Below are positions 2,195-58,536 of a stretch of DNA of 64,000 nucleotides, in pieces (the first letter of the stretch is position 1; each line of letters begins with the position of its first letter). The stretch covers positions 1 through 64,000 of IMG/VR virus record IMGVR_UViG_3300025467_000526; one strand, written 5' to 3'. The notes beneath the pieces are model-generated. The model was given only the letters and a program-made list of their open reading frames with translations. It was not told the DNA's origin and ran no database searches. The position numbers were made by a program, and so were the translations under genes. Origin of the DNA: a virus (Duplodnaviria; Heunggongvirae; Uroviricota; Caudoviricetes).

Positions 2195-2210
2195 TAAATT
2201 ACTAGTCACA

Positions 2211-2237
2211 AATAGGACCTTCGGGTCCTATTTTTTT
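2211..2237 (+). terminator. Rho-independent terminator (UUCG tetraloop)
   Basis: AATAGGACC-TTCG-GGTCCTATT followed by TTTTTTT. Same design as the terminator at 132..157. Confidence 0.65.
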
Positions 2238-2248: not shown

Positions 2249-3352
2249 ATGAATAAAGTTATCAAAATTGTTTCTAATCAAAAAGACAATATATTAGAAG
2301 TTCGTTGGATGGTCAATAATGTTTGCAACTATAATTGCAGGTACTGTTGGCCGGGTAGCCACGATGGCAGTTTTAAAAGTCCTGAAAACATTGATCAAAT
2401 TATTGATAATTTTGATCACATGTTTACATATTATAAAACACACTTAAACAAGACACGTTTCCATTTAAAAGTCGGGGGAGGCGAACCTACACTTTGGAAA
2501 GACTTAGGATACTTTATTGAACAACTTAAAAAAAGACACAACATATATTTTACAGTAATTTCAAATGGGTCACGTACACTACGTTGGTGGAAAGAATACG
2601 GACATTTAATAGACAATGCTACACTAAGTTATCACGTAGCAGAAGCAAATCCAGATCACATGATAGCTGTAGCAGATACGCTTTATGAATTAGGTAAGAA
2701 GACCAGCGTCAAAGTATTAATGGATCCTAACCTGTGGGATGAAAGTGTTCGTGTGTTAGAGTATATGAAGACCAGCAAACACAGTTGGTTTTTAACTGCG
2801 ACTGAAGTTATTGAACCCGAGCATGTTGCATCAAATGTGATTGAAATTGTGGACGAAAATAAAAAACGTTACACACCAGAACAACGTAGTTATTTTAAAA
2901 ATGCTTTAAAACGTATGCCTGGTTGGTCATGGATATTCAAAAATATTAAATTATTGATAGGTGGTGAAATAAAATTGTTTGAAAGTACCGCTTATTTAGA
3001 CAACGGCACTACTATTAAAGCTAGGCCAGAAACTTATATTTTGAACGGATGGAATAATTTTAAAGGATGGAGTTGTAATATTGGATTGGAAAGTGTCTAC
3101 ATACATTGGGACGGCGAAGTAGTAGGATCATGCCAGGAAACATTATATGGGTTAGATTATCGTTATAACATCTTAGACAGCAATTTTGTACAAAATTTTC
3201 ACCCAGATTTAAAACCTATTGTGTGTAATCAAAATAATTGTTTCTGCGGAACAGAAACACATATATCAAAGTTTGATCTTAGTAAGCGGGATATCAGCGG
3301 CACAGGTACAGAAGTTTCGATCACAGATGACAGGGTTATCAGGCACCACTAG
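2249..3352 (+). CDS. radical SAM enzyme, paralog family A
   Basis: CNYNCRYC (CxxxCxxC), GGGEPT motif, and a C-terminal Cys cluster GWSCNIG…IHWDGEV…C…CNQNNCFCG shared with 3266..4156 and 20891..21856. Confidence 0.7.
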   Translation: MNKVIKIVSNQKDNILEVRWMVNNVCNYNCRYCWPGSHDGSFKSPENIDQIIDNFDHMFTYYKTHLNKTRFHLKVGGGEPTLWKDLGYFIEQLKKRHNIYFTVISNGSRTLRWWKEYGHLIDNATLSYHVAEANPDHMIAVADTLYELGKKTSVKVLMDPNLWDESVRVLEYMKTSKHSWFLTATEVIEPEHVASNVIEIVDENKKRYTPEQRSYFKNALKRMPGWSWIFKNIKLLIGGEIKLFESTAYLDNGTTIKARPETYILNGWNNFKGWSCNIGLESVYIHWDGEVVGSCQETLYGLDYRYNILDSNFVQNFHPDLKPIVCNQNNCFCGTETHISKFDLSKRDISGTGTEVSITDDRVIRHH

Positions 3353-4156
3353 AGTTCCTTGATAAATGTTACCCAAACTACCGCCTACTCGGCACGTAGC
3401 ACGATGTACTTCTCCATCCCAATTTATCATTAGGCTTTCTATACCTGCGTTACATGACCAGTCTTTGTATTTGTTAAAATGCAGTTTGATAATATCATTG
3501 GCATGTATTTTCTTATCATCATCTATAACACAGTTTGCTTCTACTGTAGCTTCATATTCTTTAACCCATTCTAAGTCTTCTGCATTGTATCGCATGTCAT
3601 CGAACAAATCGTGATCACCTTGCGTCCAACGAACTCTACGAACAGCATGAGGGATATTACTTGCGGACAACGCACCTGCAATGTATCTAGTACGTTTCAT
3701 ATGGTCTTGATGTGCCATGACATGCACTAATATCTTTCCTGGGAATAGTTCTTTGGTGTTGACTATTGTATCTAATACACGTCTAACGTCATATTCCATG
3801 TGTACACTAAACACATATTGGTCAACACGTTGTTTACTATAAAATTCAAAGGGTAGCGTGCCGTTAGTTGTTACACTTATCCAACTGACTCCTTGATTCT
3901 TACAATAATTTATTAGCTCTTCAAATTTAGGATGTACAGTAGGCTCGCCACCTGTAAAACTTAAACGTATGGGTTTGTTTAATGCAACAAGTTTATCTAC
4001 AGTTGTTTTAAGAATTTCAATATCAGTATGCGGACTTGAGTTATCATGAATACTACTAGGGCAATAGCTACAATCGAAATTACAACGTTTGCCCAAATTC
4101 CATTCTATTTTAATAGTGTTTGGATGGTGCTCGTATAAACTGGTAACCTTAAACAT
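3266..4156 (-). CDS. radical SAM enzyme, paralog family A
   Basis: CNFDCSYC, FTGGEPT, and C-terminal DWSCNAG…INWDGEV…C…CDRNFCTC. Its 3' end overlaps 2249..3352 by 87 nt on the opposite strand. Confidence 0.7.
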   Translation of the reverse strand: MFKVTSLYEHHPNTIKIEWNLGKRCNFDCSYCPSSIHDNSSPHTDIEILKTTVDKLVALNKPIRLSFTGGEPTVHPKFEELINYCKNQGVSWISVTTNGTLPFEFYSKQRVDQYVFSVHMEYDVRRVLDTIVNTKELFPGKILVHVMAHQDHMKRTRYIAGALSASNIPHAVRRVRWTQGDHDLFDDMRYNAEDLEWVKEYEATVEANCVIDDDKKIHANDIIKLHFNKYKDWSCNAGIESLMINWDGEVHRATCRVGGSLGNIYQGTLVVPDNPVICDRNFCTCAADIPLTKIKL

Positions 4157-5420
4157 AATTCTTAAATTCCGGAGTTATGTCTATAAAACTTTGATTGCGT
4201 GTTACATCAAGTCTTTGATTAAAATCTATACAATCTTTCCACAAGTGACTTTCATCCTTTGCCATTAAAAAATTAATGTTGTCCTGTATTTGCCCTAGCG
4301 TATATTCCAACAGTCCGGGTGTTTCTTTTATTAGCTTAAAGTCTGCTACATGTTCTTTAATTGCCTGTAGTTTTGTAATAGCCAGTACTTGCAATTCTCT
4401 TGGCAATACTTGTGCAGATAATACATTGGGGTGTGTAACCCTATGAGTATGAAATATGATACCTAAGTCATCTAAAAAGTATTCTATTATTTTATCTAGC
4501 ACAAGTACATTGCTAACTTGTACAGTACATGCACCCACTACTCTTGTAATATTTGAAATTTTCTTTATTTCTTTGACGTTAGATATAACTTCTTGCCAAT
4601 CGCTGTTACCACGAATGTAATTGTAAACGTTGCCAATGCCGTCAAGAGAGACGTTAACGGCAACTGATCTAAAATAAGGCCAATAGTCATGAATTGTTCT
4701 TCCTTTATTAATTCCTAATGTTGTGCCATTAGTAGCATACTTTAGTTCTATTTGATGCCCGTAGGGTTTCAACATATCTAAAATTCTATAGTGCTGGGGA
4801 TCCATTAACGGTTCCCCGCCTGCAAACTCTACTCTTCTAAAATAAGGTAATAATTTTTCTAAATTATTCCACCATTCAGGATTATCTTGAAATTTATCTA
4901 AATAGGGTTTGCGTTCTAAATCATGTTGCTCTACAATAGCATACATGATATTGTTTTCTTTTTTATAAAATTCTTTAATTTCTGCCCAATCGTTCCAAGC
5001 AGTACTGTCCATAGGATGACACATACGGCATTTAAGATTACAAAGATTGTTTAGTTTAAGTTCCATTGTAGGAATCTCAAAAGGCATAGAATAATCACTA
5101 CGCATTTTTCCAACAGCATCAGGATACAGTTTAATACGTGCTTCTGGAATTTTTCCTCTCACATGACGTAACCGCAGACTTTCTACTCCTTGATCTTCTA
5201 GACTAAAACAAGGTTCACATTCAGGAGGACGATAGCCCGTAAGTACTTGTTTACGAATACGTTTCATAGTATCGTTATTCCAAATTTCTTCAAGTGATTG
5301 TTCTTGTATAAATCCAACAGGGTGACTACGACAGCAGGCACAGATAGCTCCATCCTCTCTGGTGGCTAATCCTGTAAATGGATGCATACAAAATGTTGGA
5401 GGATTAATGCTCTGCGACAT
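4149..5420 (-). CDS. radical SAM enzyme, paralog family B (N-terminal Cys-rich domain)
   Basis: CNLKCRMC, FAGGEPL, and N-terminal CMHPFTGLATREDGAICACC. Confidence 0.7.
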   Translation of the reverse strand: MSQSINPPTFCMHPFTGLATREDGAICACCRSHPVGFIQEQSLEEIWNNDTMKRIRKQVLTGYRPPECEPCFSLEDQGVESLRLRHVRGKIPEARIKLYPDAVGKMRSDYSMPFEIPTMELKLNNLCNLKCRMCHPMDSTAWNDWAEIKEFYKKENNIMYAIVEQHDLERKPYLDKFQDNPEWWNNLEKLLPYFRRVEFAGGEPLMDPQHYRILDMLKPYGHQIELKYATNGTTLGINKGRTIHDYWPYFRSVAVNVSLDGIGNVYNYIRGNSDWQEVISNVKEIKKISNITRVVGACTVQVSNVLVLDKIIEYFLDDLGIIFHTHRVTHPNVLSAQVLPRELQVLAITKLQAIKEHVADFKLIKETPGLLEYTLGQIQDNINFLMAKDESHLWKDCIDFNQRLDVTRNQSFIDITPEFKNYV

Positions 5421-6252
5421 ATCTTATTAAAGGGCTTACGCCCACAGGTTGATTATCTTTCAATGCTAGATAAATGCTTTTGGTTGGTGTTAAATTAAAA
5501 TCTTTACAAATTTTATTATACACATCTCCGTACTTTTTCCATAAGTAATCTGGCTCTAGCTGTTTAATGAAATGTAAACCAATCATGGCAGGGGCACGAA
5601 GGTTCATACTAAAGTCGTTCATTATGGTAATAGCGTCTGGGGTTGTTTCTTTAGTCCAACGTAATCCAATTCTATTCCAACCTAGTCCTAGTCCTTTACT
5701 TAAACTTATAGCGACCGACTTAATTGCTGGATGAGATACATCAAAGTCAATTCCGCGACAGCAAGTATACCAAGCGCCGTCCACATGTACACTAATACCT
5801 TTGTCTCCCGCTTCATCTAATATCTCCTTCATGTTTGCGTGTACATCTCCTGTACTAGGAAATGGCATGGCTATAATAAGAGGAATACCTTCTTTTAACA
5901 ATCCTACTTGTGTATCCCAATTGCCTAACCTGTGATGGTATCTGTAATCACCTTGCAGTATTTGAGGCTGGCATTGCATGTATATTGAATCGATAAATTG
6001 TGTACACCCATTAATAATATCTACTCGATTAAAATTATCTAAACCTGTTATATTATTAAGTTTGGATCTTAATACCCAATCAGTCATTTCTTTTTTAAAT
6101 TGTGTATATAACAAATCGCTTATTTCGTATCCCCATCTGTGAGGTAATAGCTCCTCTATTAGGGTTTCAATATGCTTATCAGATAATGGCTGCGGTCTTT
6201 CAATTTCCAAATATTCTTCTGAGTATGCCGGGGCAATTTTAAAACGATTCAT
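5404..6252 (-). CDS. PLP-dependent aminotransferase-fold protein (class I/II-like, short)
   Basis: ISLSKGLGLGWNRIGL matches the class I/II aminotransferase PLP-lysine signature (S-x-S-K-x2-G-L-x-G-x-R-I-G). An upstream VHVDGAWY resembles the DEAY motif. At 282 aa it is shorter than typical aminotransferases. Confidence 0.5.
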   Translation of the reverse strand: MNRFKIAPAYSEEYLEIERPQPLSDKHIETLIEELLPHRWGYEISDLLYTQFKKEMTDWVLRSKLNNITGLDNFNRVDIINGCTQFIDSIYMQCQPQILQGDYRYHHRLGNWDTQVGLLKEGIPLIIAMPFPSTGDVHANMKEILDEAGDKGISVHVDGAWYTCCRGIDFDVSHPAIKSVAISLSKGLGLGWNRIGLRWTKETTPDAITIMNDFSMNLRAPAMIGLHFIKQLEPDYLWKKYGDVYNKICKDFNLTPTKSIYLALKDNQPVGVSPLIRYVAEH

Positions 6253-6261
6253 GAAATATTT

Positions 6262-7707
6262 ATGTATGCACTTAATAAGGTTAAATATTTCATGGATAAA
6301 ATATTTTGGTTACAGCCGGAGGATTCTCAGTTAGGCAAGTGGCAACGTCAATTGGAAGACGTTTCAAAAAGTCATAGTTTTTGTGTACTGCCCTGGATAC
6401 ATTTGGCAACTCGTCCGAATGGCGATATGCGTATATGCTGTGTTGCAAACGCATCGGGTGCGGATACAGGCGACTATACTGTTGGCTTAGTTAAGATGGA
6501 AGATGGCAAGCCTGCTAACTTTGCACACAATTTGCCAACTGAAGCGTTCAATAACGACTATATGAAATCAGTGCGTAAGACTATGTTGGAAGGAAAAATT
6601 CCCGCAAGTTGTACCAAATGTTTTAAAGAAGAACAACAAGGTATTGCCAGTAAACGTATTTGGGAAACAGGTACATGGTTTAAAGAAGGTATAGATATCC
6701 CAGAACTTATTGCTCAAACTAAAGAGGATGGATCAGTTCCTTATAAATTACAATACTTAGATTTAAGATTGGGACATACTTGTAACTTAAAGTGTGTCAT
6801 GTGTAGTCCACACGATAGTAGTATGTGGGTACCCGAACATAAAAAAGTATTTCCAATTTTTGCCAGCCCCTTAATTAAAAAACAAATGAGTTGGGAGCAA
6901 ACAGAGTTTAACAACACATGGCATGAAAATCCCAAGTTCTGGGAAGAAGTCTACGATCAAATTCCTAACATCAAACAACTGTACTTTGCCGGGGGAGAAC
7001 CATTACTCATTAAAGAGCATCGCAGATTCTTAGAAGAGATTGTTGCTAGGGGATATGCCAATAAAATTATCTTACGATACAACACAAACGGCACCCTCAT
7101 TAATCAAGATATTATCAACCTGTGGAGTAAGTTCCTTAAAGTTAAAGTTGGATTTAGTTTGGATGGTATGGAAACTCGTGGGCATTATATTCGCTACCCG
7201 TTAGACTGGGATACCATTGTGCAAAATTTGCACACACTAGATAATGCTCCAGATAACATACAAACTAACATTGCACTTGCAGTACAGATACTAAACATCA
7301 AACACGTTCCTGATTTTATTAAATGGAAAGTTAAGAGTAACTTCAAAAAGATTAACATGGATACTAATGCGTCCGGACAAGTTATGGGAGGCGGACTAGT
7401 AGGTGTACACTTGTTATGGATTCCTACATGGTTAAGTCTGCGTGTACTTCCTAAAGAAGACAAAGCAGAAGTGCGTCAACTATTTGCAGATTTACAAGAA
7501 TGGTTATGGAAGAACTATACACAGGACAAAGAATTTTGGGAAACTAATCCTTACGGATGGAAACGTTGGGAAGGTATATTAGATTGGATGGACGCAGAGG
7601 ATCATACTAACTTGCTTCCTGACTTTAAAGAATATATAATGACTATGGATCAGCAACGTGCTACTGATTTTAAAAAGACATTTCCAGAGCTAGCTCACTT
7701 AATATGA
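6262..7707 (+). CDS. radical SAM enzyme, paralog family B
   Basis: CNLKCVMC, FAGGEPL, and N-terminal CVLPWIHLATRPNGDMRICC. The start may instead be ATG 6292, because only 9 nt separate it from the divergent gene. Confidence 0.7.
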   Translation: MYALNKVKYFMDKIFWLQPEDSQLGKWQRQLEDVSKSHSFCVLPWIHLATRPNGDMRICCVANASGADTGDYTVGLVKMEDGKPANFAHNLPTEAFNNDYMKSVRKTMLEGKIPASCTKCFKEEQQGIASKRIWETGTWFKEGIDIPELIAQTKEDGSVPYKLQYLDLRLGHTCNLKCVMCSPHDSSMWVPEHKKVFPIFASPLIKKQMSWEQTEFNNTWHENPKFWEEVYDQIPNIKQLYFAGGEPLLIKEHRRFLEEIVARGYANKIILRYNTNGTLINQDIINLWSKFLKVKVGFSLDGMETRGHYIRYPLDWDTIVQNLHTLDNAPDNIQTNIALAVQILNIKHVPDFIKWKVKSNFKKINMDTNASGQVMGGGLVGVHLLWIPTWLSLRVLPKEDKAEVRQLFADLQEWLWKNYTQDKEFWETNPYGWKRWEGILDWMDAEDHTNLLPDFKEYIMTMDQQRATDFKKTFPELAHLI

Positions 7708-8375
7708 TTACTAAATTAACATGGACATGCCCAGATGGGCTTATTGAACAAGCATTAAAAGAATGTCCAGTGACAGGCGAAGGCACAGTACTAAACGAGC
7801 CAACAGGCGATTTCTTTTATGACGGTTGGAAAATCAAAGATCATTATAAAGACACTCCGTGGAAACAAGTATTAGATACATTACCTGTGACCATAGGCCA
7901 AGCACGTATTATTAAATTAGAACCTGGAGATACATATCAAGCACATGCGGATATCGACAATCGTTGGCATTTAAATTTAACCGGCGAGCAGTCATACCTT
8001 ATTGACTTAGATAAGAAAGTTATGCACGAATGTGTTAGAGATAACTGTTGGGCTTATATGGATGCAAGTTGTAGACACGTTGCTTCTAATTTTGGAGCTA
8101 GATCTCGTTTACAACTTGTAGTAAGAGAACCATTACGACGTAGTAGCCAACCTGTAGATTTAGTTTCCGTAATGATTGGACCAGCCTATGAACAACATCA
8201 GTTTAGATACAAATTTGATAACTTGGTTAGTCCTTTCTTAAATCATGCTGATAAAAATTATAAATTAGCAGATTTTGCTCATACTACATTTAGTTTGACG
8301 TTTAAATTAGAAAGAGAACTGCTTGATGAACTTAAACAGCTTCTTACCGCAGATTACAAATTAACTATTCTTTGA
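7704..8375 (+). CDS. hypothetical protein
   Basis: 223-aa ORF with an ATGA stop/start overlap with the upstream gene. No recognisable motif. Confidence 0.5.
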   Translation: MITKLTWTCPDGLIEQALKECPVTGEGTVLNEPTGDFFYDGWKIKDHYKDTPWKQVLDTLPVTIGQARIIKLEPGDTYQAHADIDNRWHLNLTGEQSYLIDLDKKVMHECVRDNCWAYMDASCRHVASNFGARSRLQLVVREPLRRSSQPVDLVSVMIGPAYEQHQFRYKFDNLVSPFLNHADKNYKLADFAHTTFSLTFKLERELLDELKQLLTADYKLTIL

Positions 8376-9374
8376 ACAAGTATTAACACAAGTAAGACAC
8401 TTTTTATCAGACCAAAGGTCTGGTAAGTTGTTCCATAAGTTATCTGTTAAGACTTCTGTAATAGGAGCATCGTATAAATTTGGAACTGTCAGTTTGTTAA
8501 GATGTTGTTTAGTTGTGTATATAGATATATTTCTAAGAGCATTGATGACTGTGATTTCAGTTAAAGGTTCTTCTACATAATCAGATCCTAAATAACTGCA
8601 TGGAAACAAGTTACCTCTACAGTCTACAAATACTTCATTTAAGTTAACACATTTAGGATCAATAACAGATTTAGCTACTACATCATCTCGTACTGCACTA
8701 TCTAATAATTTTTCTAAAGGTTCTGTTACTTTTGTATTTTTAGAAGGTTGTAAGTTATAGACAAACTTGTTATGATTATCAAAGACTGGAAAATTAACAA
8801 CACTATAAAACCTAGTTGTGTGTCTAAACTGTATTTGCGATACTCCTATTCCTAATAAAAATTTTTCAAGTTCTTCTACATCATCCTCGTTGTGTGCAAA
8901 CACAAGACTGTTTATATTTGCTTTACCGCCAGCCGCAACAAACGCTTTGATATTTTCTATAACTTTATCAAAATCTGTATTACGTCTATACAGCTCGTGC
9001 TTGCCTTTAAATCCGTCTACTGCAAAAGTAACTTCGTTTATATATTGTGCTAACTCTGCCCACCATTCAGGTTTACGTAAACTACCGTTGGTATGCATAG
9101 CCGAATAGATATCAGGATTTGACTCTTTGATATATTTGTAAATCTCAAGGCAATCTGTAGCAAATGCCGGATCACCGTAATTACCTGAACTATAAAAGTT
9201 AGTAAGTGTTTGTAAAAACTCCGGTGGAAACCATTGCTTAAAATCTTCAATACCAATTTCAGTATTTTTAATAAATGGACGAGTAGAGTACCCGTTATGA
9301 TTGCGGGCACACATAGGACAAGCGGCTTGGCACTTGTCTGTCAGTTCTATATGTAGTCTTTTAACTTTATACAA
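8361..9374 (-). CDS. radical SAM enzyme, paralog family C (SPASM/twitch-like C-terminal Cys cluster)
   Basis: CQAACPMC, GNYGDP, and C-terminal C…CRGNLFPC…CLTCVNTC. Paralogous to 19887..20903 (shared WWAELA…DG…LYR block). The ORF track begins at 9407. I prefer a TTG start at 9374, which aligns with the paralog N-terminus (MYKLTDI vs LYKVKRL) and reduces the overlap with the upstream gene to 8 nt. Confidence 0.6.
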   Translation of the reverse strand: MYKVKRLHIELTDKCQAACPMCARNHNGYSTRPFIKNTEIGIEDFKQWFPPEFLQTLTNFYSSGNYGDPAFATDCLEIYKYIKESNPDIYSAMHTNGSLRKPEWWAELAQYINEVTFAVDGFKGKHELYRRNTDFDKVIENIKAFVAAGGKANINSLVFAHNEDDVEELEKFLLGIGVSQIQFRHTTRFYSVVNFPVFDNHNKFVYNLQPSKNTKVTEPLEKLLDSAVRDDVVAKSVIDPKCVNLNEVFVDCRGNLFPCSYLGSDYVEEPLTEITVINALRNISIYTTKQHLNKLTVPNLYDAPITEVLTDNLWNNLPDLWSDKKCLTCVNTCSKNS

Positions 9375-12528: not shown

Positions 12529-12568
12529 CTATTTATAGTGGGTGTTAACTGCCCGATAAATATTGCCT

Positions 12569-13213: not shown

Positions 13214-13725
13214 TTAAATGGAAACCAATCGTCGATACGCTATTACTGCTTGACGGTGAGCATGTGTCCTTAAAACATACCAACAACATACCTGTTGGCA
13301 ATCCGCATTTTGTCGAAATTATGAAACAATTAGAATCTGCCAAATATGATTTTAGTTCTGTAGATTGGATCGATTATTATCCTAGTGTACATTTCGATAA
13401 CACCTGTGTCGATGAATTTAGTAAATTAGTAGACCATAAAATATGTAGAGCTTGGATTAGTCGTGTCGACCCAGGAAAAAATGCACCTTGGCATTGGGAT
13501 GTAGACGACCAAGAAACAGAGTTTTTAAAATTAGGTAAGTTAAAGAGATGGACTTGTTTTATAACTGAACCCAAAGTTGGGCATAGTTTAATTATTGGCA
13601 ATAAAGGATTTTACAATGAACCTGCTGGCACTATATATGAATGGCCTAATTACAGAGAATGGCATTGTGCCGCTAACTGTGGTATGGAGCCACAATTCTT
13701 ATTTCATTTTTTAGGATTTAAATAA
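13210..13725 (+). CDS. hypothetical protein
   Basis: 171-aa ORF with an ATGA overlap with the upstream gene. Confidence 0.45.
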   Translation: MIKWKPIVDTLLLLDGEHVSLKHTNNIPVGNPHFVEIMKQLESAKYDFSSVDWIDYYPSVHFDNTCVDEFSKLVDHKICRAWISRVDPGKNAPWHWDVDDQETEFLKLGKLKRWTCFITEPKVGHSLIIGNKGFYNEPAGTIYEWPNYREWHCAANCGMEPQFLFHFLGFK

Positions 13726-15370: not shown

Positions 15371-16164
15371 AAATTTAATTCCTTTTTCATAGCATCTGTA
15401 AAATATCCGTCAACACGTAGTGACCAAGCGGGTGCAATATGTCTAACTGCCGAATGCCATTCTTTTGCATTAAACCAGCATGCCCATGAATTAGCAAAAT
15501 ACTTGTCTTTGTTATCAGCATCGAATACATAGAAAGGTCTACTAGTGTCAGAACGTAAATGTATAAAATGAGGTAATTGATCAATATCATCATGCACCTT
15601 ATCTAACGGCAACCGCAAGTCACTGTCTGGTGCTAGGTCATAATGTTCTACAGTTCTTCCATCATGCTCAACGTAAAATATACATACCCGGAATATACTA
15701 TCAAACATTGTTCCAATTAAAGAATTTGCCCATGCCATCACTGAAGGAAACTTTTCTGCAAGCTCGGGTAGTTTAGCATCGGGCATAGTTGTGCCGCCAA
15801 AGTTTTCATTTGTAGTTAAGTAAAAAACACGAAGTGGATCATACACTCCGTATTTTGATTTAAAAAATCTAATTAGTTTATTTCTAGAAGTTACGTTATC
15901 TAGATTATTGTGCCACTGCTTTGCTTTAGAGTCATCTGTAATATCTGGATCTTTCAAGAAATCCTTTAATCCGTCCGGAATAGTTTTCCAGTCTTGCGGA
16001 TTAGTTGAGTTAGGATGATTTTCAATATCAATCCATATACCTTCAAATGCATCTAACTTGGTTTCTGCAAGCCCAGCTATAATTTCAGGTTCAAGTTTTT
16101 GAAACGCTTCTCTATCTAAGAAACGACTCATGTCTACTATTGGCTGACCGTTAATCCCTCGCAT
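15367..16164 (-). CDS. hypothetical protein, paralog of 14567..15370
   Basis: Start trimmed to the internal Met (MRGINGQPIVDMSRFLD) that aligns with the paralog N-terminus (MIKGINNIPYFDMSPHLD). The ORF track extends to 16221. Confidence 0.4.
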   Translation of the reverse strand: MRGINGQPIVDMSRFLDREAFQKLEPEIIAGLAETKLDAFEGIWIDIENHPNSTNPQDWKTIPDGLKDFLKDPDITDDSKAKQWHNNLDNVTSRNKLIRFFKSKYGVYDPLRVFYLTTNENFGGTTMPDAKLPELAEKFPSVMAWANSLIGTMFDSIFRVCIFYVEHDGRTVEHYDLAPDSDLRLPLDKVHDDIDQLPHFIHLRSDTSRPFYVFDADNKDKYFANSWACWFNAKEWHSAVRHIAPAWSLRVDGYFTDAMKKELNL

Positions 16165-16846
16165 ATATTTGTTTTGCCTTTTTAATAAAATCTTCTGGAT
16201 ACATATTACTAAAACAATCAAATGTAAGTTGTTGTATTACGTTTAACGGATATTTTGTATTCCAATCTAAATTAATAGAATCTGTATATTTTTTTAACTG
16301 TTCTTGTCTTTGTAAACTAATGTGACTTTGTACACTTGCAATGGATAAATCGGGTTCATTGCTACTGTAAGTAAAAAAATAGTTGATGCTTTTTAGTTTG
16401 CCATCTACAATAAAATAACTGCTTGGGTGCATACTGTACTTGTACCAGCCTCTGTCTTTGTGTGCTTGGATAATGGCTAGCATTTGATCCTGCCAGTCTG
16501 GTAGTATTTCATTAAACGAACAATTACGGTCTAAACTTTGTTGCCAAAAATCAACACCACCAATTTCTAAATAAATTTTACGTTCTGGAACATTTACTTC
16601 TTTAATTGCTGGAACCATGTCTGGATTATGCCAAGCCATGTTGCTAATGAAGTGCAATTCTCGATTCCATTTTTCATCCATTAGTTCTTGGTCAATTACT
16701 TGATTCTTACCCTGGTGATATTCGGAATCATTATGATACCACATACAAAATGTTTTACTATCACTACTAATTAAACTAGTATAGATTAAGTTATTTCTAC
16801 AAGGTTCTTCACCTGGTACGCGATTGTAATAGTATTCAAACTGCAT
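16151..16846 (-). CDS. hypothetical protein
   Basis: 231-aa ORF, first gene of the minus-strand run. Confidence 0.45.
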   Translation of the reverse strand: MQFEYYYNRVPGEEPCRNNLIYTSLISSDSKTFCMWYHNDSEYHQGKNQVIDQELMDEKWNRELHFISNMAWHNPDMVPAIKEVNVPERKIYLEIGGVDFWQQSLDRNCSFNEILPDWQDQMLAIIQAHKDRGWYKYSMHPSSYFIVDGKLKSINYFFTYSSNEPDLSIASVQSHISLQRQEQLKKYTDSINLDWNTKYPLNVIQQLTFDCFSNMYPEDFIKKAKQIYARD

Positions 16847-16907
16847 AAAATCTCCCTATAGCTCTATTTATTTTCTGCCCTTAACTCTACAACATAAATA
16901 TTGTACT

Positions 16908-17984
16908 ATGAAAATTACAAAAATACCCGGCTTAGGAAGATTCGGAATCTTTATCGATGATGTAGACTTTACTACAATGTCAGATGACCAGTGGTTAGAA
17001 ATCGGACAACTGCATTTACAAAACTTAGTTACAATCATACGAGACTGTAACATGCCTTGGGAAACTCAACCAGACTGGTGTGAAAAGTTTGGTCCCAGAC
17101 GCAGTGGAGTACGCTACCATATGGAAAAGAAGTATGGTCAACAATGGAATTGGTTATTCAAAGAAGCACAAGCAAATAATCCTATTATTAGTGAATTGGA
17201 TCGAGAACGTATACAAGCTATTGCCAAAGTACAGTATCAAACTCCAGGCGGAAAAAGTTTCATGAAAGTGAGTGGAGCCAAGGATGAACACGGTAATGCA
17301 CTTGGGATGTTTGCAGAAGGCGAATTACTATGGCATAGTAACGAATCGGGTACGCTGACATTTACTCCGGGCGTTGCATTGTTGGGTGTGCAGAACATGA
17401 TAGGATCTGCTACAGGATTTATCACAACTACTGATTATTATGAAAATGTAAGCAATGCATTTCGTAGCGAATTAGATGAAATGATACTGTTACATAGATT
17501 TATCCCGGGTGCTATTAATCCAGGTCTACGTGCAGATCAAGATGAAATCATGCATGCCAATATGTGTCCAGAAGACGATACCGAAATACCAATGACCATT
17601 TTAAGTCCAGGTGGTATCAAAGGACTGCATTATAGTATTAATACTGCTTATAGTATTAAGGGCATGAGCAAAGAATCCAGCGATGAAATATTTGCTATGA
17701 TTAACAAAGAATTATTTGTAGACAAATACATCTATGATCACTGGTATCAAAGTGATCACGACTTGTGTTTGTTTGACAACAGTATTACATTACACAGAAG
17801 ATTAGGCGATATCAAAGAACGTGTGTGCCATCGTGTCCCACATGACTACACTAAATTACATAGCAACTTTTGGCAGCCTTATAGCCAACCAGATGTTGCT
17901 GATCAATTCGAAAAAGAAATTCTTTACTATGTTGATTTATGCAAGGTTAGAGGATACAGAATGCCTGACGGAAGTTTGTCTTGA
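16908..17984 (+). CDS. TauD/TfdA-like dioxygenase-fold protein
   Basis: C-terminal HWYQSDHDLCLFDNSITLHRR matches the pattern of the TauD C-terminal motif. An earlier LWHSNES lies where HxD would be. The metal ligands are not fully canonical. Confidence 0.45.
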   Translation: MKITKIPGLGRFGIFIDDVDFTTMSDDQWLEIGQLHLQNLVTIIRDCNMPWETQPDWCEKFGPRRSGVRYHMEKKYGQQWNWLFKEAQANNPIISELDRERIQAIAKVQYQTPGGKSFMKVSGAKDEHGNALGMFAEGELLWHSNESGTLTFTPGVALLGVQNMIGSATGFITTTDYYENVSNAFRSELDEMILLHRFIPGAINPGLRADQDEIMHANMCPEDDTEIPMTILSPGGIKGLHYSINTAYSIKGMSKESSDEIFAMINKELFVDKYIYDHWYQSDHDLCLFDNSITLHRRLGDIKERVCHRVPHDYTKLHSNFWQPYSQPDVADQFEKEILYYVDLCKVRGYRMPDGSLS

Positions 17985-18592
17985 ATCCGTATGCCGTTGA
18001 AAATACATACCACGTAATTTATCACGAAACATGTGATGAGTTCGAACGTGTACGCAGTATCTGTTTAGAAGAGAATAATTGGTTACAGAAAAATTATACT
18101 CAAGAAAAATTAGTTATAGAAGATCATAGTGGTTATGTTGTAGTATATCAGAAAGAAACTAACAAACCTATTATCATGGCAGGTGCATATAATGGCATGT
18201 TTCCTTCTAACGTAGCTCGATTAGCCAACAGATTATATTTGTTTCCAGAATTTCGTTGCGGTAGACACAACATGATAGAATCTTACAAACTTCATCATGA
18301 ACGTATAGTTAAGCCTTTAATGGCTATTAACGATTACAATCTGTATGTTATCACTATGCAAAATCGTACTCGTGGAAACAAGGGGTGGTGGAGTCGTTGG
18401 AAAAAAATGATGCAAGAATCCAGCAATAATATGTGGACTGAAGCAGATGGCTATTTGCAAACATGTCCATGGCTTGTTCAAAAGTGTTGTCAAAATTTTG
18501 TTTATACAGAATTAAAAAAAGGTACATTTAAAGAATGGAACCCAAAAATTATAACCGAGGCGGAATGGCAAGTATTGCCTGAAGGTACATGA
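17981..18592 (+). CDS. hypothetical protein (probable TTG start)
   Basis: 203-aa ORF. The first in-frame ATG is far downstream, so TTG 17981, overlapping the upstream stop, is the likely start. Confidence 0.4.
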   Translation: MNPYAVENTYHVIYHETCDEFERVRSICLEENNWLQKNYTQEKLVIEDHSGYVVVYQKETNKPIIMAGAYNGMFPSNVARLANRLYLFPEFRCGRHNMIESYKLHHERIVKPLMAINDYNLYVITMQNRTRGNKGWWSRWKKMMQESSNNMWTEADGYLQTCPWLVQKCCQNFVYTELKKGTFKEWNPKIITEAEWQVLPEGT

Positions 18593-19323
18593 CATTAAAC
18601 AAAAAGTTACGAACCTTACAATTTTTAAATCTTTTCTTATCTATCGTAGGATTGTGTTATTATGGGTTTGATTACTTGTTGTTGAGTTATCTAGTTTTTG
18701 TTTTGTTATGCCCTATTGGAATTAGTGCAGGGTTACATAGATACTTTACACACAAGTCTTATAAAACATCTAAGTTCTGGGAAAGAACTATGTTGCTGTT
18801 AAGTGTATATGCTACTGTAGGTAGCAGTATAGCTTGGGTCGGTGTTCACAGAGCACATCATACATTTACCGACAAACCCTACGACCCGCATAGTCCAGCT
18901 GATGGAGTATTCAAAGCATGGACTGGTATAGGGCATACTGAAACTAAGATCCCAGTTAGTTTTGTAAAAGATCTATTAAGAGATCCGTTACATAGATTTA
19001 TACACGATAATTATTTTAAAATTTTATTGATTCCAGTAATTGCATTATTTCTGTATAGTCCAATGCTCGGAGTTTTTTTATATGCTATACCTGCAACTCT
19101 GGCGCTACAAACAACTAGCATAGTTAATGTACTAGGACACACACAAGGATATCGCAGTTACAATACTGACGATTGCAGTAGCAATAGTTGGATTGCTAAC
19201 ATTCTTAGTTTAGGAGAAGGATGGCATAATAACCATCATCATTATCCCAGCAATTTTAGTTTAACAGAACGTTGGTGGGAATGGGATTTAATTGGCGAAT
19301 TTATAGAGGCAATTCGCCTATAA
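18589..19323 (+). CDS. membrane fatty-acid (acyl-lipid/acyl-CoA delta9-type) desaturase-like protein
   Basis: Three His boxes match the stearoyl-CoA/DesC-type desaturase pattern: HRYFTH, HRAHHTF…DPHSP, and GEGWHNNHHHYP. The N-terminus is hydrophobic. Confidence 0.6.
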   Translation: MTLNKKLRTLQFLNLFLSIVGLCYYGFDYLLLSYLVFVLLCPIGISAGLHRYFTHKSYKTSKFWERTMLLLSVYATVGSSIAWVGVHRAHHTFTDKPYDPHSPADGVFKAWTGIGHTETKIPVSFVKDLLRDPLHRFIHDNYFKILLIPVIALFLYSPMLGVFLYAIPATLALQTTSIVNVLGHTQGYRSYNTDDCSSNSWIANILSLGEGWHNNHHHYPSNFSLTERWWEWDLIGEFIEAIRL

Positions 19324-19897
19324 TCATATAGCGGGTATACATCTGTGTTTCTAACTCACCGGACCATATGACATCAAGTTTACTTTGTTCTTCAAAATGT
19401 TGTAAACTAGTAGAAGTTCTAATGTGTTCTGGTAACTCATAATTGTTGCCTTGCAACACAATCAAACTATCTTTTCTAAGACCCGACAACCATAGCTCGT
19501 AATCTTCTTGAGTGATATGTTCACAGCTAGTATTAATAACAACATCAGCCTCGCTAGGCACGTTTATCATATTAGCATGGATGAATTCAAACCTGCCCTG
19601 TATATGTTCAATCTTGTTCATCATCTCGGATATAGATTTACAGTTTATATCTAAATCTATATTGTTAATTTTTTCAACAGTCATTCCACTTTGAAATATC
19701 ATACTGGCTAGAGTACCTACCCACCCTGCGTATATGTCAATATTAACAGGCTGATCAATTTCTAATTTCAAATGTTCTATCAGCCATTCTTTACTTTTAA
19801 TTTGTCCGCGCCAAAACGCTTCTAAAGTTTGACTTGGATTGTCGCTATCTCTTATAGCACACATCCAATAATGTAAATGTTCTGTATCAATTAGCAT
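19301..19897 (-). CDS. hypothetical protein, possible SAM-dependent methyltransferase fold
   Basis: NIDIYAGWVGTLA is a weak glycine-rich motif-I-like segment, followed by an acidic DVVIN. The assignment is weak. Confidence 0.3.
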   Translation of the reverse strand: MLIDTEHLHYWMCAIRDSDNPSQTLEAFWRGQIKSKEWLIEHLKLEIDQPVNIDIYAGWVGTLASMIFQSGMTVEKINNIDLDINCKSISEMMNKIEHIQGRFEFIHANMINVPSEADVVINTSCEHITQEDYELWLSGLRKDSLIVLQGNNYELPEHIRTSTSLQHFEEQSKLDVIWSGELETQMYTRYMIIGELPL

Positions 19898-20903
19898 TAA
19901 ACTGTGTTCCTAACTTGTCGAACTTGCCGCATTGTTTGGCACATTCATAAACTGGGTCGTTAGCCCAGGTGTTTTCAATACGATTAAAATAACCCGAATT
20001 GAAAATGTCCTCTAAAGATTGTTCATGTAGATTAGGAAACTCTCCAATCTTGTCCATATAATCGATACGAGTATATTGTTTATGTAATTTTTCTTTAAAG
20101 TCCATCCAGCAACACGGACCGACATTACCAGACGCCGCAACATAAATTTGTTTGTATTTGACTGCCTTGCAAGTAATAACACAAGAACTTTTGTCTACCA
20201 CTTGATCCATAGGCATATCTTTTGCATACTTTAAAACTTCTGGAAGTATTTCTTCAGTTTTGGTACTTGGCAATAAATGATACAATGTCTTGCCTGAATC
20301 ATCTAATACTGGAAATTTAATATCAGTAAATCGAGTTGTGTGTTTTACTTGGAATAAATTAAATCCTAACTGGGCAGACAGACGGCGACATGCTTCTACT
20401 TGATGCTCATTGTGTTTGAACACCAGCATGTGCCAATCTGCATGGCCACCTGCTTGTATGAATGCAGTTGCATTTTTTATAATTCTGTTCCAATCTGTGT
20501 CTATTCTATAAAGAGAATGAGTGTCTTCTAATCCGTCAATACCAAATACTACTCTAATATCTAATTTAGCTAACTCTGCCCACCATTGAGTACTTCTAGC
20601 ACTGCCGTTTGTATGCATACTCAAACGTATATTAGGATTAGTTGTTCTGAGGTACTGAAAGATTGCCAAACAATCTTCTGCAATGATAGGATCACCCAAG
20701 TTGCCGCACATGAATAAACTATCTAGTTGACAGATAAAATCTTTACTGAACCATTTTTTAAATGTATCTAAATCTATTTCCACTAATGTCATGAGCGGAT
20801 TCAATGTGCCGCCGTTGATACGCCTTGGGCACATAGGGCAACGTGCTTGACATTTAGTAGTTACTTCTAAGTGTATATCTCGTATGTCTGTTAGTTTATA
20901 CAT
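19887..20903 (-). CDS. radical SAM enzyme, paralog family C (SPASM/twitch-like)
   Basis: CQARCPMC, GNLGDP, and C-terminal C…CCWMDF…C…CAKQC. Confidence 0.65.
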   Translation of the reverse strand: MYKLTDIRDIHLEVTTKCQARCPMCPRRINGGTLNPLMTLVEIDLDTFKKWFSKDFICQLDSLFMCGNLGDPIIAEDCLAIFQYLRTTNPNIRLSMHTNGSARSTQWWAELAKLDIRVVFGIDGLEDTHSLYRIDTDWNRIIKNATAFIQAGGHADWHMLVFKHNEHQVEACRRLSAQLGFNLFQVKHTTRFTDIKFPVLDDSGKTLYHLLPSTKTEEILPEVLKYAKDMPMDQVVDKSSCVITCKAVKYKQIYVAASGNVGPCCWMDFKEKLHKQYTRIDYMDKIGEFPNLHEQSLEDIFNSGYFNRIENTWANDPVYECAKQCGKFDKLGTQFNAN

Positions 20904-21856
20904 TTTGGTATTTTGCTGTCTGCACTACTTACGCAACGAGGCGTTGAACATATACGAGGTGCGGAAAACAAAGTAAATTTTTCTATCGTACCTAATGGCT
21001 CATCCCGACAACTATAAGCTCTTTTAACTTCAGTACCTTTTATTATAACACTTTGATAGCCTGCATTGCAAGTCCAATTGGTAAAACTATTGAACCCTAA
21101 TGCGTTGAATCGTTCTGCTTGATCTATAAAATAATTCTGATTACCGTCGGTTAACCTGATTTGATATCCTTCCTGCTGTTCAAAGTCATTTTGCATTATA
21201 GTAAGCATATCAGGAGTATAGCCTTCTACAATAGCAGTAGCAGTATCATTGCTTTGTGGTTTGAGAGTTACGTTGATTCCACGAGCACGAAGGCGTTCAC
21301 AGCGAGCCAATGTTTCATAAAACACACTGGGAACCATTACTTGATTAACTGTTACATGTACCTGTTCATACATTAACTGTAAACATTTGTCTCCAAACTC
21401 TTGCTCTCTAGCATGTTCTGCGTGAAAACTGGCAGTGATACTTCTTCGCTGTAGGCAGTCTGTAACATCGCTCCAATGCTTCCACCATTTTGATCCTGGA
21501 CTTAAATTAGTTGTCATATGGATACTTTGGTACGGGCTTTCGGTTTCGTCCAAATGTTTGATCAAATTGAGCAAATCTCGATAAGCAGTCGGCTCACCTC
21601 CGCTGAAGCTCCAGTGGAATTCTTCAAATCCATTTATCCTAGCCTGGCGTTTGATTTCATCTATAACGGATTTATACACTTCTAAGGTTTGGTGATCCGG
21701 TTGATCGCTTCTAGCGTAGGGCCAACAGTAGGAACATTTATAGTTACAAAATCTACCCAGGATCCAACTAATGTTAAATAATGGACGATCCAACATAGAT
21801 TGTTGTCCAAAACGTTGTATTTTTGCGAAAGGTATAGTTGAGAATTGCATTGACAT
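20891..21856 (-). CDS. radical SAM enzyme, paralog family A
   Basis: CNYKCSYC, FSGGEPT, and C-terminal NWTCNAG…C…C.TPRC. Confidence 0.7.
   Translation of the reverse strand: MSMQFSTIPFAKIQRFGQQSMLDRPLFNISWILGRFCNYKCSYCWPYARSDQPDHQTLEVYKSVIDEIKRQARINGFEEFHWSFSGGEPTAYRDLLNLIKHLDETESPYQSIHMTTNLSPGSKWWKHWSDVTDCLQRRSITASFHAEHAREQEFGDKCLQLMYEQVHVTVNQVMVPSVFYETLARCERLRARGINVTLKPQSNDTATAIVEGYTPDMLTIMQNDFEQQEGYQIRLTDGNQNYFIDQAERFNALGFNSFTNWTCNAGYQSVIIKGTEVKRAYSCRDEPLGTIEKFTLFSAPRICSTPRCVSSADSKIPKCIN

Positions 21857-45707: not shown

Positions 45708-58536
<12,829 letters not shown>

Follow-up and report, generated by a model that had tools for sequence, protein, structure and literature searches.

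The window analysed here, the whole stretch of 64,000 nucleotides, comes from an uncultured T4-like aquatic phage (its virion protein is 41-46% identical to the cyanomyovirus counterparts), and it raises the question of what a phage does with an island crowded with radical-SAM enzymes and whether the genes of this island serve one pathway. A sequence-only reading had placed such an island at 2249-21856, and this could be confirmed: 22 closely packed genes, transcribed in eight blocks of alternating direction, include eight for radical-SAM enzymes, and a ninth lies at 36595-37971. The enzyme inventory proved correct by profile and fold matches, with two TauD dioxygenases, two or three AspH-type cupins, a fatty-acid desaturase, a PLP fold-type-I protein and a class-I methyltransferase fold; no glycosyltransferase was detected in the island. 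The gene directly preceding the island start encodes a fibre protein with an Mtd_N domain, and the left edge carries a hairpin:

2210..2233, + strand: terminator-like hairpin 3' of the fibre gene (10-bp stem, then a T run)

The core of the island is carried by 80 viral contigs with stable neighbourhoods, and occurrence was counted in the 33 viral loci having at least 8 kb of flank on each side. All 22 genes had been taken as one unit; this holds for a conserved core of approx. 9 to 13 genes, while the rest is lineage-specific. Nine genes travel together in nearly all viral relatives, the radical-SAM genes 20891, 19887, 6262, 2249, 3266 and 4149 (named by their first coordinate) with 19301, 5404 and 7704. 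Genes 6262, 4149, 7704 and the 19887 type were present in 33/33 full-flank loci, 19301 and 20891 in 32/33, 5404 in 28/33, and 3266 and 2249 in 27/33; the accessory genes were variable, and the number of radical-SAM genes per locus ranged from 5 to 9 (n=33). The module genes rank among the best conserved of the viral loci, gene 6262 being approx. 70-85% identical in the relatives, as compared with 46-93% in the case of 23151 and 25992, which flank the module. None of the GenBank phages in the collection searched carried the core.

The CxxxCxxC and GGEP signatures had been read as radical-SAM motifs, and the canonical core was indeed found in all nine genes:

2249..3352, + strand: small group B radical-SAM enzyme, core gene (PF04055, 51 bits; CNYNCRYC at 26, GGEP at 77)
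3266..4156, - strand: group B radical-SAM enzyme, core gene (PF04055, 53.7 bits)
4149..5420, - strand: N-terminal-twitch (NF033640) radical-SAM enzyme, core gene (329.7 bits, cut-off 170)
6262..7707, + strand: N-terminal-twitch radical-SAM enzyme, core gene (NF033640, 402.9 bits)
8361..9407, - strand: group C radical-SAM enzyme, second copy of the 19887 type (PF04055, 52.7 bits)
11293..12528, - strand: N-terminal-twitch radical-SAM enzyme, accessory paralogue (NF033640, 284.8 bits)
19887..20903, - strand: group C radical-SAM/SPASM enzyme, core gene (PF04055, and SPASM at residues 245-325)
20891..21856, - strand: group B radical-SAM enzyme, core gene, right edge of the island (PF04055, 44.7 bits)
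36595..37971, + strand: ninth radical-SAM enzyme, N-terminal-twitch, displaced from the island (NF033640, 334 bits)

SPASM/twitch-type domains were detected in 9/9 of these enzymes, four of which are of the N-terminal-twitch type. The product of 2249 ends in a Cys-rich SPASM/twitch-like tail, and in that of 4149 the SPASM Pfam match spans residues 11-71. The six core enzymes form three new subfamilies, all with auxiliary-cluster domains of the SPASM/twitch type. Within the module, 6262 shows the highest conservation (4103 database clusters matched at E<=1e-10, the best 120 all with at least 77% identity); the relatives' copies of 3266 are 54-78% identical. The 19887 type occurs in 1-3 copies per locus, and 8361 and 19887 share 37% identity. 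The supposed link of the ninth paralogue to the island was borne out, since a 36595-type gene lies within or adjoining the module in the relatives L003, L004, L049, L050 and L067. No match at viperin level was obtained.

The core is completed by three further genes:

5404..6252, - strand: short PLP fold-type-I protein (class I/II aminotransferase/C-S lyase-like)
7704..8375, + strand: AspH-type cupin, Fe/2OG oxygenase-like (PF05118, 23.6 bits, cut-off 22.6)
19301..19897, - strand: class I SAM-methyltransferase fold (AF2 model, pLDDT 92.7; Foldseek)

The PLP protein resembles class I/II enzymes handling amino acids, and H81, D83 and H125 of the cupin are invariant. The model of 19301 matched NRMT/NTM1, DnrK and nicotianamine synthase (Foldseek E ~1e-10).

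The remaining genes of the island are accessory:

9367..10599, - strand: protein of unknown fold, without family match
10586..11296, - strand: AspH-type cupin (PF05118, 49.4 bits; 6 viral loci)
12563..13213, + strand: protein-kinase-like fold (family profile against PDB: TTK kinase E 7e-7, Bud32 E 0.015)
13210..13725, + strand: short cupin related to 7704 (hhalign E 2.4e-5, probability 76%)
13704..14567, - strand: TauD/TfdA-family Fe/2OG dioxygenase, rare (PF02668, 83.7 bits; 2/80 loci)
14567..15370, - strand: HxD...H...R protein, frequent (H177, D179, H233, R246 invariant; 17/33 loci)
15367..16221, - strand: paralogue of 14567 (32% identity, E 7e-42)
16151..16846, - strand: second protein-kinase-like fold protein (common family alignment with 12563)
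16908..17984, + strand: TauD/TfdA-family dioxygenase, rare (PF02668, 54.2 bits)
17981..18592, + strand: unknown protein, desaturase companion (adjoins a desaturase homologue in L055 and L060)
18589..19323, + strand: membrane fatty-acid desaturase-like di-iron protein (PF00487, 57.1 bits)

The hhalign comparison of 13210 with 7704 aligned the PGxxxxHxD and H motifs, H95, D97 and H152 being invariant in 13210. The 14567 protein gave neither a PDB nor a Pfam match, the desaturase-like protein has three His boxes (HRYFTH, HRAHH, HNNHH), and the kinase-like paralogues 12563 and 16151 lack the HRD catalytic aspartate. Presence varies between relatives for the lineage-specific additions, namely the TauD genes, the desaturase pair and the 8361-11293 block: among the 80 viral loci, TauD genes were counted in 2, the desaturase in 6 and 9367/10586 in 6-7. 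Relatives carry other extras, namely a B12-radical-SAM enzyme, a halogenase, an aminotransferase and, inside the module in 18/33 loci, a QueC-like PP-loop ATPase, whose gene is absent from our 64,000-nt window.

Most of the core could also be found in chromosomal contigs of Bdellovibrionota, up to 3 Mb in length, where orthologues of 6262 (45-50% identity), 20891 (45-49%), 19887 (35-46%), 19301, 5404 and 3266 stand in matching neighbourhoods. These clusters differ from the island by added GT2, carbamoyltransferase and DxD (fam37) proteins and by fused domain architectures, and they hold 3-6 tandem N-twitch paralogues. The 19301 homologues are fused to an additional N-terminal domain, and 10586-like cupins to 9367-like proteins (L084:2395-4596, L125:6057-8273, L091:19337-21319). 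The latter fusion ties neighbouring island genes together and, judged from sequence, a functional tie between the 9367 protein and cupin 10586 is predicted. Among the extra families next to the bacterial clusters, the most frequent ones are GT2 (three families), carbamoyltransferase and an FAD protein of the amine-oxidase type; one operon of L097 contains or adjoins a GT2, a QueC-like PP-loop protein and an AspH-like cupin. TauD genes and the desaturase were absent from the bacterial modules. Like the phage module, these N-twitch clusters, members of NCBIfam NF033640, are uncharacterised.

The reading that we prefer, held tentatively and at rather less than even confidence, is that the island consists of a single conserved module, biosynthetic or tailoring in function, with lineage-specific additions, and that it performs a multi-step radical and oxidative pathway on one substrate, a sugar- or amino-acid-derived block or a surface glycoconjugate. 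The families and folds of the enzymes, the joint inheritance of the core and its occurrence in bacteria are shown; we infer the single pathway, the chemistry of its steps and their order, the class of substrate and what the module is for. The absence of a conserved short ORF from the viral and bacterial modules means that the substrate is not a peptide encoded by the cluster. The core enzymes would act one after another on a single substrate which, being encoded outside the cluster, would have to exist in phage-infected cells and Bdellovibrionota alike. Several hydrogen atoms would be abstracted by the radical-SAM enzymes at unactivated carbons, which may lead to dehydrogenation, epimerisation, methylation or the formation of C-C or C-X bonds. 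A group resembling an alpha-amino acid would be the target of the PLP enzyme, with the methyltransferase capping the product. The variable AspH-type and TauD oxygenases and the kinase-like proteins, and in relatives the PP-loop ATPase, B12-radical-SAM enzyme, halogenase and aminotransferase, would diversify this product. The building block would be destined for a surface glycoconjugate, either on the infected cell's envelope or on a virion fibre.

The neighbourhoods of the bacterial modules, with GT2 and carbamoyltransferase genes, resemble sugar tailoring. BtrN, BlsE and MoaA, twitch enzymes acting on sugars or small molecules, share with the island enzymes one auxiliary cluster and small-molecule-type contexts; however, their twitch domain is C-terminal, and it is N-terminal in 4/9 of the island-type enzymes. 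The profiles matched BlsE and MoaA weakly, the similarity being confined to the common core, and membership of these families was unsupported. An IscA-type carrier had been noted elsewhere in the window; the match was verified, and the window also encodes ClpP and a superoxide dismutase:

45708..46031, + strand: IscA-type (A-type) Fe-S carrier (PF01521, 79.5 bits)
43652..44209, + strand: Fe/Mn superoxide dismutase (Sod_Fe_C and Sod_Fe_N matches)

The carrier likely has a support function and the dismutase possibly protects Fe-S enzymes; together with ClpP they would supply and protect the Fe-S clusters.

It is rather unlikely that the module matures a large protein other than a precursor peptide (a tail fibre, another virion protein or an envelope protein of host or prey), which could undergo radical cross-linking or epimerisation, Asp/Asn hydroxylation, methylation and possibly glycosylation. 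The SPASM/twitch-type domains of all nine enzymes, the AspH-type cupins, the kinase-like fold and the top fold matches of the methyltransferase, the protein N-terminal methyltransferases NRMT/NTM1, are consistent with such a role, and so are the best named NCBIfam matches, weak ones, among which are families annotated as anaerobic sulfatase maturase, tungsten-enzyme maturase or 'metalloenzyme maturase'. However, all named family matches fall far under their cut-offs, and the kinase-like proteins lack the catalytic aspartate. Also in favour, the island begins directly after an Mtd_N fibre gene, in L015 a fibre-like gene likewise adjoins the module, and in pelagimyophages 'cassettes related to radical SAM proteins' lie within the hypervariable host-recognition island (Zaragoza-Solas et al. 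2020, PMC7029224). Such islands of pelagimyophages and cyanomyophages also adjoin fibre genes in cyanomyophage-like T4 phages; the radical-SAM part of our window, in contrast, is a conserved core and not variable filler. The fibre adjacency is not kept, as the window's fibre has no homologue among the 80 viral loci, and no candidate substrate protein is co-conserved with the module in phages or bacteria.

Hypermodification of nucleic acid, yielding a complex base on phage DNA against restriction or on RNA, e.g. the adjacent tRNA-like RNA, appears improbable. The strong conservation of the module is typical of genes that a phage cannot lose, the structured, anticodon-less tRNA-like RNA is always the direct divergent neighbour of the 20891-type gene, the QueC-like gene recurs in relatives, and in L135 a 36595-type enzyme lies amid dCMP deaminase, ThyA-like, DHFR and DegT genes. 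An analogy to thymidine hypermodification had been proposed: the clusters of M6, ViI and PaMx11 (Lee et al. 2021, PMC8989533) likewise combine phage radical-SAM and PLP enzymes in one multi-step tailoring pathway, as inferred for the island. They have a single radical-SAM enzyme as against 8-9 here, and the analogy fails on their hallmarks, the 5-hmdU DNA kinase and the aGPT-Pplase (amino-acid:DNA transferase), both absent from the island. DpdA/TGT, QueD, FolE and other deazaguanine hallmarks were also not found there, QueE equivalogs scored 17-36 bits against cut-offs of 206-260, and the PP-loop gene is missing from the window. Moreover, the bacterial modules stand beside glycosyltransferases, without restriction-type partners or the tRNA-like RNA.

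Sactipeptide, ranthipeptide, PQQ and mycofactocin clusters contain radical-SAM/SPASM maturases, often several, with hydroxylases or methyltransferases, and the island shares with them the enzymes with auxiliary Fe-S domains. A RiPP pathway with its precursor encoded elsewhere in the genome is nevertheless very unlikely. No precursor had been evident at first reading, and 80 viral and 20 bacterial loci yielded no conserved short ORF within the module or close to it; RRE/PqqD domains, leader peptidases and transporters are missing from the island, and the RiPP maturase equivalogs all scored far under their cut-offs. The RiPP-like interpretation was thus not upheld. Least probable of all is that the genes share no pathway and form a hyperplastic region of unrelated auxiliary metabolic genes gathered by duplication or transfer: the variable TauD, desaturase and 8361-11293 genes, the alternating transcription blocks and the hypervariable islands documented in cyanophages and pelagimyophages (PMC3037559, PMC7029224), such hyperplasticity being described for 2OG-Fe(II) oxygenase-rich regions of T4-like cyanophages, fit this for the accessory genes, but not for a nine-gene core kept together in phages and bacterial chromosomes, nor for the domain fusion.

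The earlier interpretation is, overall, partly supported. Its statement that no described phage pathway has this composition stands for the function; many radical-SAM genes in such phages had, however, already been noted (PMC5332604, PMC7029224). The T4-like marine viral genome TARA_ERS488813_N000010 has 12 radical-SAM genes and an A-type Fe-S carrier, and a general 'Fe-S-related metabolism' was suggested from the gene counts (Nishimura et al. 2017, PMC5332604). Like the window, genomes of this type combine an IscA-type carrier with many radical-SAM genes, with ClpP and with further genes related to Fe-S; that study defined neither a module nor gene families, nor a counterpart in bacteria, nor a function. 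An AspH-type hydroxylase is a core gene of the pelagimyophages (PMC7029224). No described pathway matches the enzyme set, and where earlier papers noted many radical-SAM genes and assigned no function, a core can now be recognised that many related phages share with predatory Bdellovibrio-type bacteria.

The window derives from a T4-like phage, judged by its phage ligase, endonuclease, fibre and virion-protein families, and one of its virion structural proteins is 41-46% identical to the Synechococcus cyanomyovirus counterparts. The island at 2249-21856, whose genes are named here by their start coordinates, had been described as 22 tightly coupled genes; 22 ORFs were indeed counted, in eight transcription blocks of alternating direction with intergenic gaps of at most 61 bp. 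The features at its edges were the following:

2210-2233, terminator-like hairpin at the left island edge, downstream of the fibre gene with an Mtd_N domain
21850-21878, sigma-70 promoter of perfect consensus at the right island edge, directed away from the island
21885-21998 (+), tRNA-like RNA, served by the promoter 21850-21878

The T4 late-promoter motif TATAAATA was rarer than chance (2 observed vs 10 expected) and no enrichment of sigma-70-like sites was found. With T4-like virion proteins, a fibre gene immediately upstream and accessory variation from locus to locus, the region has the features of the hypervariable islands of T4-like cyano- and pelagimyophages; in contrast to those islands, its radical-SAM core is not variable. 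Megablast of the island plus the next 24 kb against 50,697 GenBank phage records gave zero matches. Elsewhere in the window, immediately 3' of the IscA-type gene, a giant ORF of 4167 amino acids (46034-58537, +) probably encodes a virion or fibre protein of exceptional size.

Relatives were collected by scanning IMG/VR with the 6262 protein, which returned 80 viral contigs of 56-99% identity and sizes up to 353 kb, including one independent contig at 99% identity. Mapping all the island proteins onto these 80 loci revealed a recurring order: 20891, 19887-type (1-3 copies), 19301, 6262, 2249, 3266, 4149, (PP-loop ATPase), 5404, 7704, 12563-type, 13210-type, 14567, 16151. Occupancy was counted over the 33 viral loci having at least 8 kb of flank on each side. 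The radical-SAM genes 6262, 4149 and 19887-type and the cupin gene 7704 were present in 33/33, the methyltransferase gene 19301 and the radical-SAM gene 20891 in 32/33, the PLP-protein gene 5404 in 28/33, and the radical-SAM genes 3266 and 2249 in 27/33; each of these loci carried 5-9 radical-SAM genes. By its recurrence, the core appears to behave as one functional unit. The remaining genes are add-ons: the TauD genes were found in 2/80 viral loci, the desaturase gene and 17981 in 5-7, and the block 8361-9367-10586-11293 in a handful. The relatives carry further add-ons, which are not in the window:

QueC-like PP-loop ATPase (18/33 loci)
B12-binding radical-SAM enzyme
SGNH hydrolase
2OG-FeII_Oxy_5 protein
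class III aminotransferase
Trp-halogenase-type enzyme
DxD protein of family fam37

The sequence-only reading had claimed eight radical-SAM enzymes with CxxxCxxC and GGEP signatures, and a ninth at 36595..37971. Pfam and NCBIfam bore out the eight and the ninth, CxxxCxxC was present in 9/9, and all nine belong to the superfamily; the GGEP signature held for 7/9 only. Eight enzymes scored 33-54 bits with PF04055 (gathering cut-off 29.5), while 36595 remained under the cut-off with 28.4 bits and passed NF033640, the NCBIfam model "twitch domain-containing radical SAM protein" (N_Twi_rSAM; curated cut-off 170 bits). The nine sort into three paralogue groups:

Group A: 4149, 6262, 11293 and 36595, full-length NF033640 members with an N-terminal Cys-rich auxiliary domain
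Group B: 2249, 3266 and 20891, small enzymes with the C-terminal tail CxAG...DG...C...CxC
Group C: 8361 and 19887, with a C-terminal SPASM match in 19887

The group A proteins match NF033640 from end to end (4149, 329.7; 6262, 402.9; 11293, 284.8; 36595, 334.4 bits), and 4149 and 11293 each have an N-terminal SPASM match in Pfam. The other five scored 30-57 bits and are non-members; in groups B and C the radical-SAM core begins 13-37 residues from the N-terminus. The gene 36595 is displaced from the island in the window; since genes of its type lie within or adjoin the module in several viral relatives, it belongs with the island. A possible DxD partner of this enzyme, 35777-36604, was considered and rejected, having no detectable similarity to fam37.

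Profiles of groups B, C and the N-twitch enzymes (those with an N-terminal twitch domain) matched only the generic core of PDB entries (anSME, viperin, GDGT-MAS, NifB, BlsE, MoaA, SkfB; E 1e-4 to 1e-6); no solved radical-SAM structure is close to the window enzymes. By tblastn, no orthologues of 4149, 6262 or 20891 were found in the 50,697 GenBank phage records, only matches of 22-30% identity, among them in a Ralstonia jumbo phage. In the protein database 6262 matched 4103 clusters at E<=1e-10; the best 120 of the 4103 had identities of 77% or more, came without exception from metagenomes and bore no specific name. Viperin/pVip identity was rejected, the best NF038283 score being 53 bits against a cut-off of 180. 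The top scorers were the group B enzymes, aligned only over about the first 70-110 profile positions, that is, the shared cluster-binding core; the matches of 6262, 4149 and 8361 were longer, yet ended near position 155-159 of ~260, and none extended into the C-terminal, nucleotide-binding part of the profile. PADLOC gave only partial pVip matches, confined to the shared radical-SAM core, and these were likewise discarded as evidence of viperin or of a defence system.

The two proposed TauD/TfdA-like dioxygenases were recovered with PF02668 (13704, 83.7 bits, aligned over positions 14-265 of the 267-position profile; 16908, 54.2 bits), and both were far under the cut-offs of the substrate-specific equivalog models of the family. 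AspH-type cupins were recognised in 10586 and 7704 (PF05118, 49.4 and 23.6 bits; cut-off 22.6). The HxD...H metal triad is invariant in the 7704 family (H81, D83, H125), of which 13210 is a short relative detected at profile level only. The di-iron desaturase-like membrane protein also stood: 18589 matches PF00487 with 57.1 bits (cut-off 29.7) and carries the His boxes HRYFTH, HRAHH and HNNHH. Its assignment as DesA was rejected (90 bits vs a cut-off of 400). Profile searches gave no family for the HxD...H pair 14567/15367, for 9367 or for 17981, and hhalign found no relation of the 14567 family to the AspH-like 7704 family.

What had been called a possible methyltransferase, 19301, has a class I SAM-methyltransferase fold in its AF2 model (pLDDT 92.7), with more than 1000 PDB methyltransferase matches (best E 1.9e-10). 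A loop with G58 and G61 and an NTSCEH motif are conserved in this predicted SAM-methyltransferase. It matched 3724 protein-database clusters, and the 120 listed were all without Pfam domain and unnamed or "hypothetical"; the same was true of the 120 listed among the 1174 clusters matched by 5404. The latter protein has the fold, the Schiff-base lysine and the pyridine-nitrogen-binding aspartate of PLP fold-type-I enzymes and resembles an amino-acid enzyme more than a sugar aminotransferase; its family profile gave only a weak motif match among the PDB sequences (E 0.19). Nothing useful was obtained from PDB-sequence profile searches with the 19301, 14567, fam37 and fam9 families. The pair 12563 and 16151 appears to share a protein-kinase-like fold, and the family profile matches the catalytic region of TTK kinase (E 7e-7). 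The family does not conserve the HRD aspartate, its sole invariant residues being Y23, W112, K130 and P135, and the two proteins may be pseudokinases or atypical small-molecule kinases.

The IscA-type Fe-S carrier noticed earlier is present in the window, alongside an Fe/Mn superoxide dismutase and ClpP. These three plausibly serve Fe-S supply and protection, and the dismutase and ClpP may help to maintain the Fe-S enzymes. Such a role agrees with the A-type carrier and up to 12 radical-SAM genes noted in T4-like marine viral genomes (PMC5332604). The dismutase is encoded at 43652-44209, and ClpP and a DUF6492 protein at 32212-32802 and 42712-43644.

The tRNA-like RNA has a 7-bp acceptor stem, a T arm, a long variable-arm hairpin and an encoded ACCA, and is without an anticodon loop. 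In place of an anticodon arm it has an invariant stem, ACCUCCUCC/GGAGGG, in which an anti-Shine-Dalgarno-like strand pairs with an SD-like one; the tip of this stem varies and in the viral locus L042 is only a UUCG tetraloop. Compensatory changes were seen in 11/29 pairs among 15 homologues. The Rfam tRNA model gave 24 bits, under its gathering cut-off of 29, and ARAGORN did not detect the RNA. Its place in the viral loci checked is near the 20891-type gene on the opposite strand (~30 nt apart in the viral locus L017 and in the window); in the bacterial loci described below it was not found. It may, among other possibilities, be a decoy, carry an aminoacyl group or have a role related to translation. 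Three small ORFs were observed on the same flank:

22029-22352 (+), small secreted protein with a signal peptide and an HExxH zinc-protease motif (HEMRH); family fam15, kept in 24 viral loci
22765-22935 (+), small AbrB/MazE-like (SpoVT-type) ORF by eye; family fam23, kept in 13 viral loci
22928-23149 (+), 73-aa ORF reading like IF-1 (S1-fold, MSKKEDVIELTGLVKEVLPGNMFRVEV...); family fam16, kept in 23 viral loci

The IF-1-like ORF is close to the tRNA-like RNA with its SD/anti-SD stem. A similar family to fam23, fam24, occupies the flank of 22765-22935 in 11 further viral loci.

A bacterial counterpart was found when one genome per GTDB species was scanned with the N-twitch alignment (one short peptide pattern), which gave at least 80 loci. 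Among the matches listed, MAGs of Bdellovibrionota (Bdellovibrionales, Bacteriovoracaceae, Halobacteriovoraceae) made up the overwhelming majority, and the family often formed 3-6 tandem paralogues in these predators. The contigs reach 3 Mb and the neighbouring genes are ordinary chromosomal ones. In 20 loci, among the matches listed, a 20891-type gene adjoins an N-twitch radical-SAM gene, and 18/20 also have a 19887-type gene. Identities to the window proteins were 44-50% for the 6262 orthologue where present, 35-46% for the 19887-type and mostly 44-49% for the 20891-type, with only ~25% in two loci. Frequent companions are a 19301-like methyltransferase, at times fused to an additional N-terminal domain, the DxD protein fam37, a 3266-like enzyme and a 5404-like PLP protein (24-40%). 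Three Bdellovibrionota proteins of 660-738 amino acids join a 10586-like cupin to a 9367-like domain; since such fusions are Rosetta-stone evidence, 9367 and 10586 are likely to be functionally linked:

L084, 2395-4596, fusion protein of the 10586-9367 type
L125, 6057-8273, fusion protein of the 10586-9367 type
L091, 19337-21319, fusion protein of the 10586-9367 type

Beside the bacterial modules, the extra genes met most often encode GT2 glycosyltransferases (three families), a carbamoyltransferase of NodU/CmcH type and a protein of FAD amine-oxidase type. In the bacterial locus L097 a GT2 gene follows the 20891-like gene in one operon, and adjoining genes encode an AspH-like cupin and a PP-loop protein resembling QueC. 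N-twitch enzymes were also met in an ACP/ketosynthase lipid-type cluster of Paenibacillus and with ACP and GT1 in Poseidonocella. The contig L135 of a "Fischerella" MAG (18955 bp) is phage-like, with three fibre-like and two GT-like genes; it has the order fam37, 36595-type radical SAM, dCMP deaminase, fam37, along with DegT-like aminotransferase, ThyA-like and DHFR genes, so that the type of the ninth paralogue is met here in another setting, unlike the first.

Since no substrate is encoded with the core in phages or bacteria, the substrate is expected to be a metabolite or cell component of universal occurrence. The reading we tentatively favour is a multi-step radical and oxidative route to a modified surface glycoconjugate: the core would tailor a sugar- or amino-acid-derived unit by several radical and oxidative steps, and the unit would then be displayed on the glycoconjugate. 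PF05118 also holds the lipid A hydroxylase LpxO, and twitch-type enzymes such as BtrN and BlsE have sugar substrates; an envelope or glycan target would agree with both facts. The reading is favoured because GT2 and carbamoyltransferase genes neighbour the bacterial modules, because the DxD protein fam37 pairs with N-twitch enzymes, and because the phage module lies in a fibre-associated hypervariable island, a kind of island held to remodel the host surface (PMC7029224).

A serious rival, although an unlikely one on balance, is that the module modifies a fibre or envelope protein, with which the SPASM domains, the AspH cupins, the kinase-like fold and the NRMT-like methyltransferase matches are consistent. 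Modification of nucleic acid is less probable still, as the hallmarks of both relevant pathways were not found in the island. The analogy with thymidine hypermodification that had been offered did not hold: its hallmarks are a 5-hmdU DNA kinase and aGPT-Pplase (PMC8989533), and neither the kinase (P-loop) nor an aGPT-Pplase/amino-acid:DNA transferase was found among the 22 island proteins. A 7-deazaguanine (preQ0/archaeosine-type) cluster was rejected as well, with QueE equivalog scores of 17-36 bits vs cut-offs of 206-260; QueC, QueD, FolE and DpdA/TGT had no match in the island, and the QueC-like PP-loop gene of relatives is not in the window.

RiPP-like tailoring, suggested by the sequence-only reading, failed on both precursor gene and RRE. 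That no precursor peptide is evident was borne out: none was found, the island, with intergenic gaps of at most 61 bp, has no space for such a gene, and no conserved ORF under 100 aa was found inside the module in 80 viral or in 20 bacterial loci. Pfam and NCBIfam searches of the 22 island proteins gave no RRE/PqqD-like domain, and the scores with RiPP maturase equivalogs were all far under the cut-offs. A classical RiPP cluster is thus rejected, and a RiPP with a remotely encoded precursor, against which the RRE and maturase results equally speak, is very improbable. The least probable reading makes the island, recurring core included, a mosaic with no single pathway.

In the literature searched, no functional study of such phage radical-SAM sets was found, just two observational mentions; many radical-SAM genes in such phages have been reported in both, without function (PMC7029224, PMC5332604). 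New as far as the literature was searched are the definition of a conserved core, three radical-SAM subfamilies without characterised members, the minimal PLP protein and the methyltransferase that accompany them, the link by domain fusion and the Bdellovibrionota counterpart. Going beyond the favoured glycoconjugate reading, one may speculate, with some doubt, that the core is an undescribed radical-SAM pathway (three new subfamilies together with a methyltransferase and a minimal PLP enzyme) common to widespread uncultured aquatic T4-like phages and predatory Bdellovibrionota, and that it gives a novel surface or virion modification for attacking Gram-negative cells. In a more extreme variant the target would be phage DNA or the neighbouring tRNA-like RNA that has no anticodon. 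That product and pathway are categorically new is possible, if rather doubtful.

Radical-SAM enzymes catalyse some of the hardest reactions of biology, and phage-encoded ones of known function are, to our knowledge, few. The present module, with 5-9 such enzymes per locus, is highly conserved in viral contigs from many metagenomes and recurs in predatory bacteria, and its best-conserved enzyme, 6262, matches thousands of metagenomic protein clusters. Its study is tractable, since the minimal set of 6262, 20891, 19887, 19301 and 5404 can be co-expressed and screened. Once the product is identified, new enzyme chemistry will probably come to light in three radical-SAM subfamilies, including the N-twitch family which NCBI annotates without function, and with it a new means for abundant aquatic phages to remodel themselves or the cells they infect.
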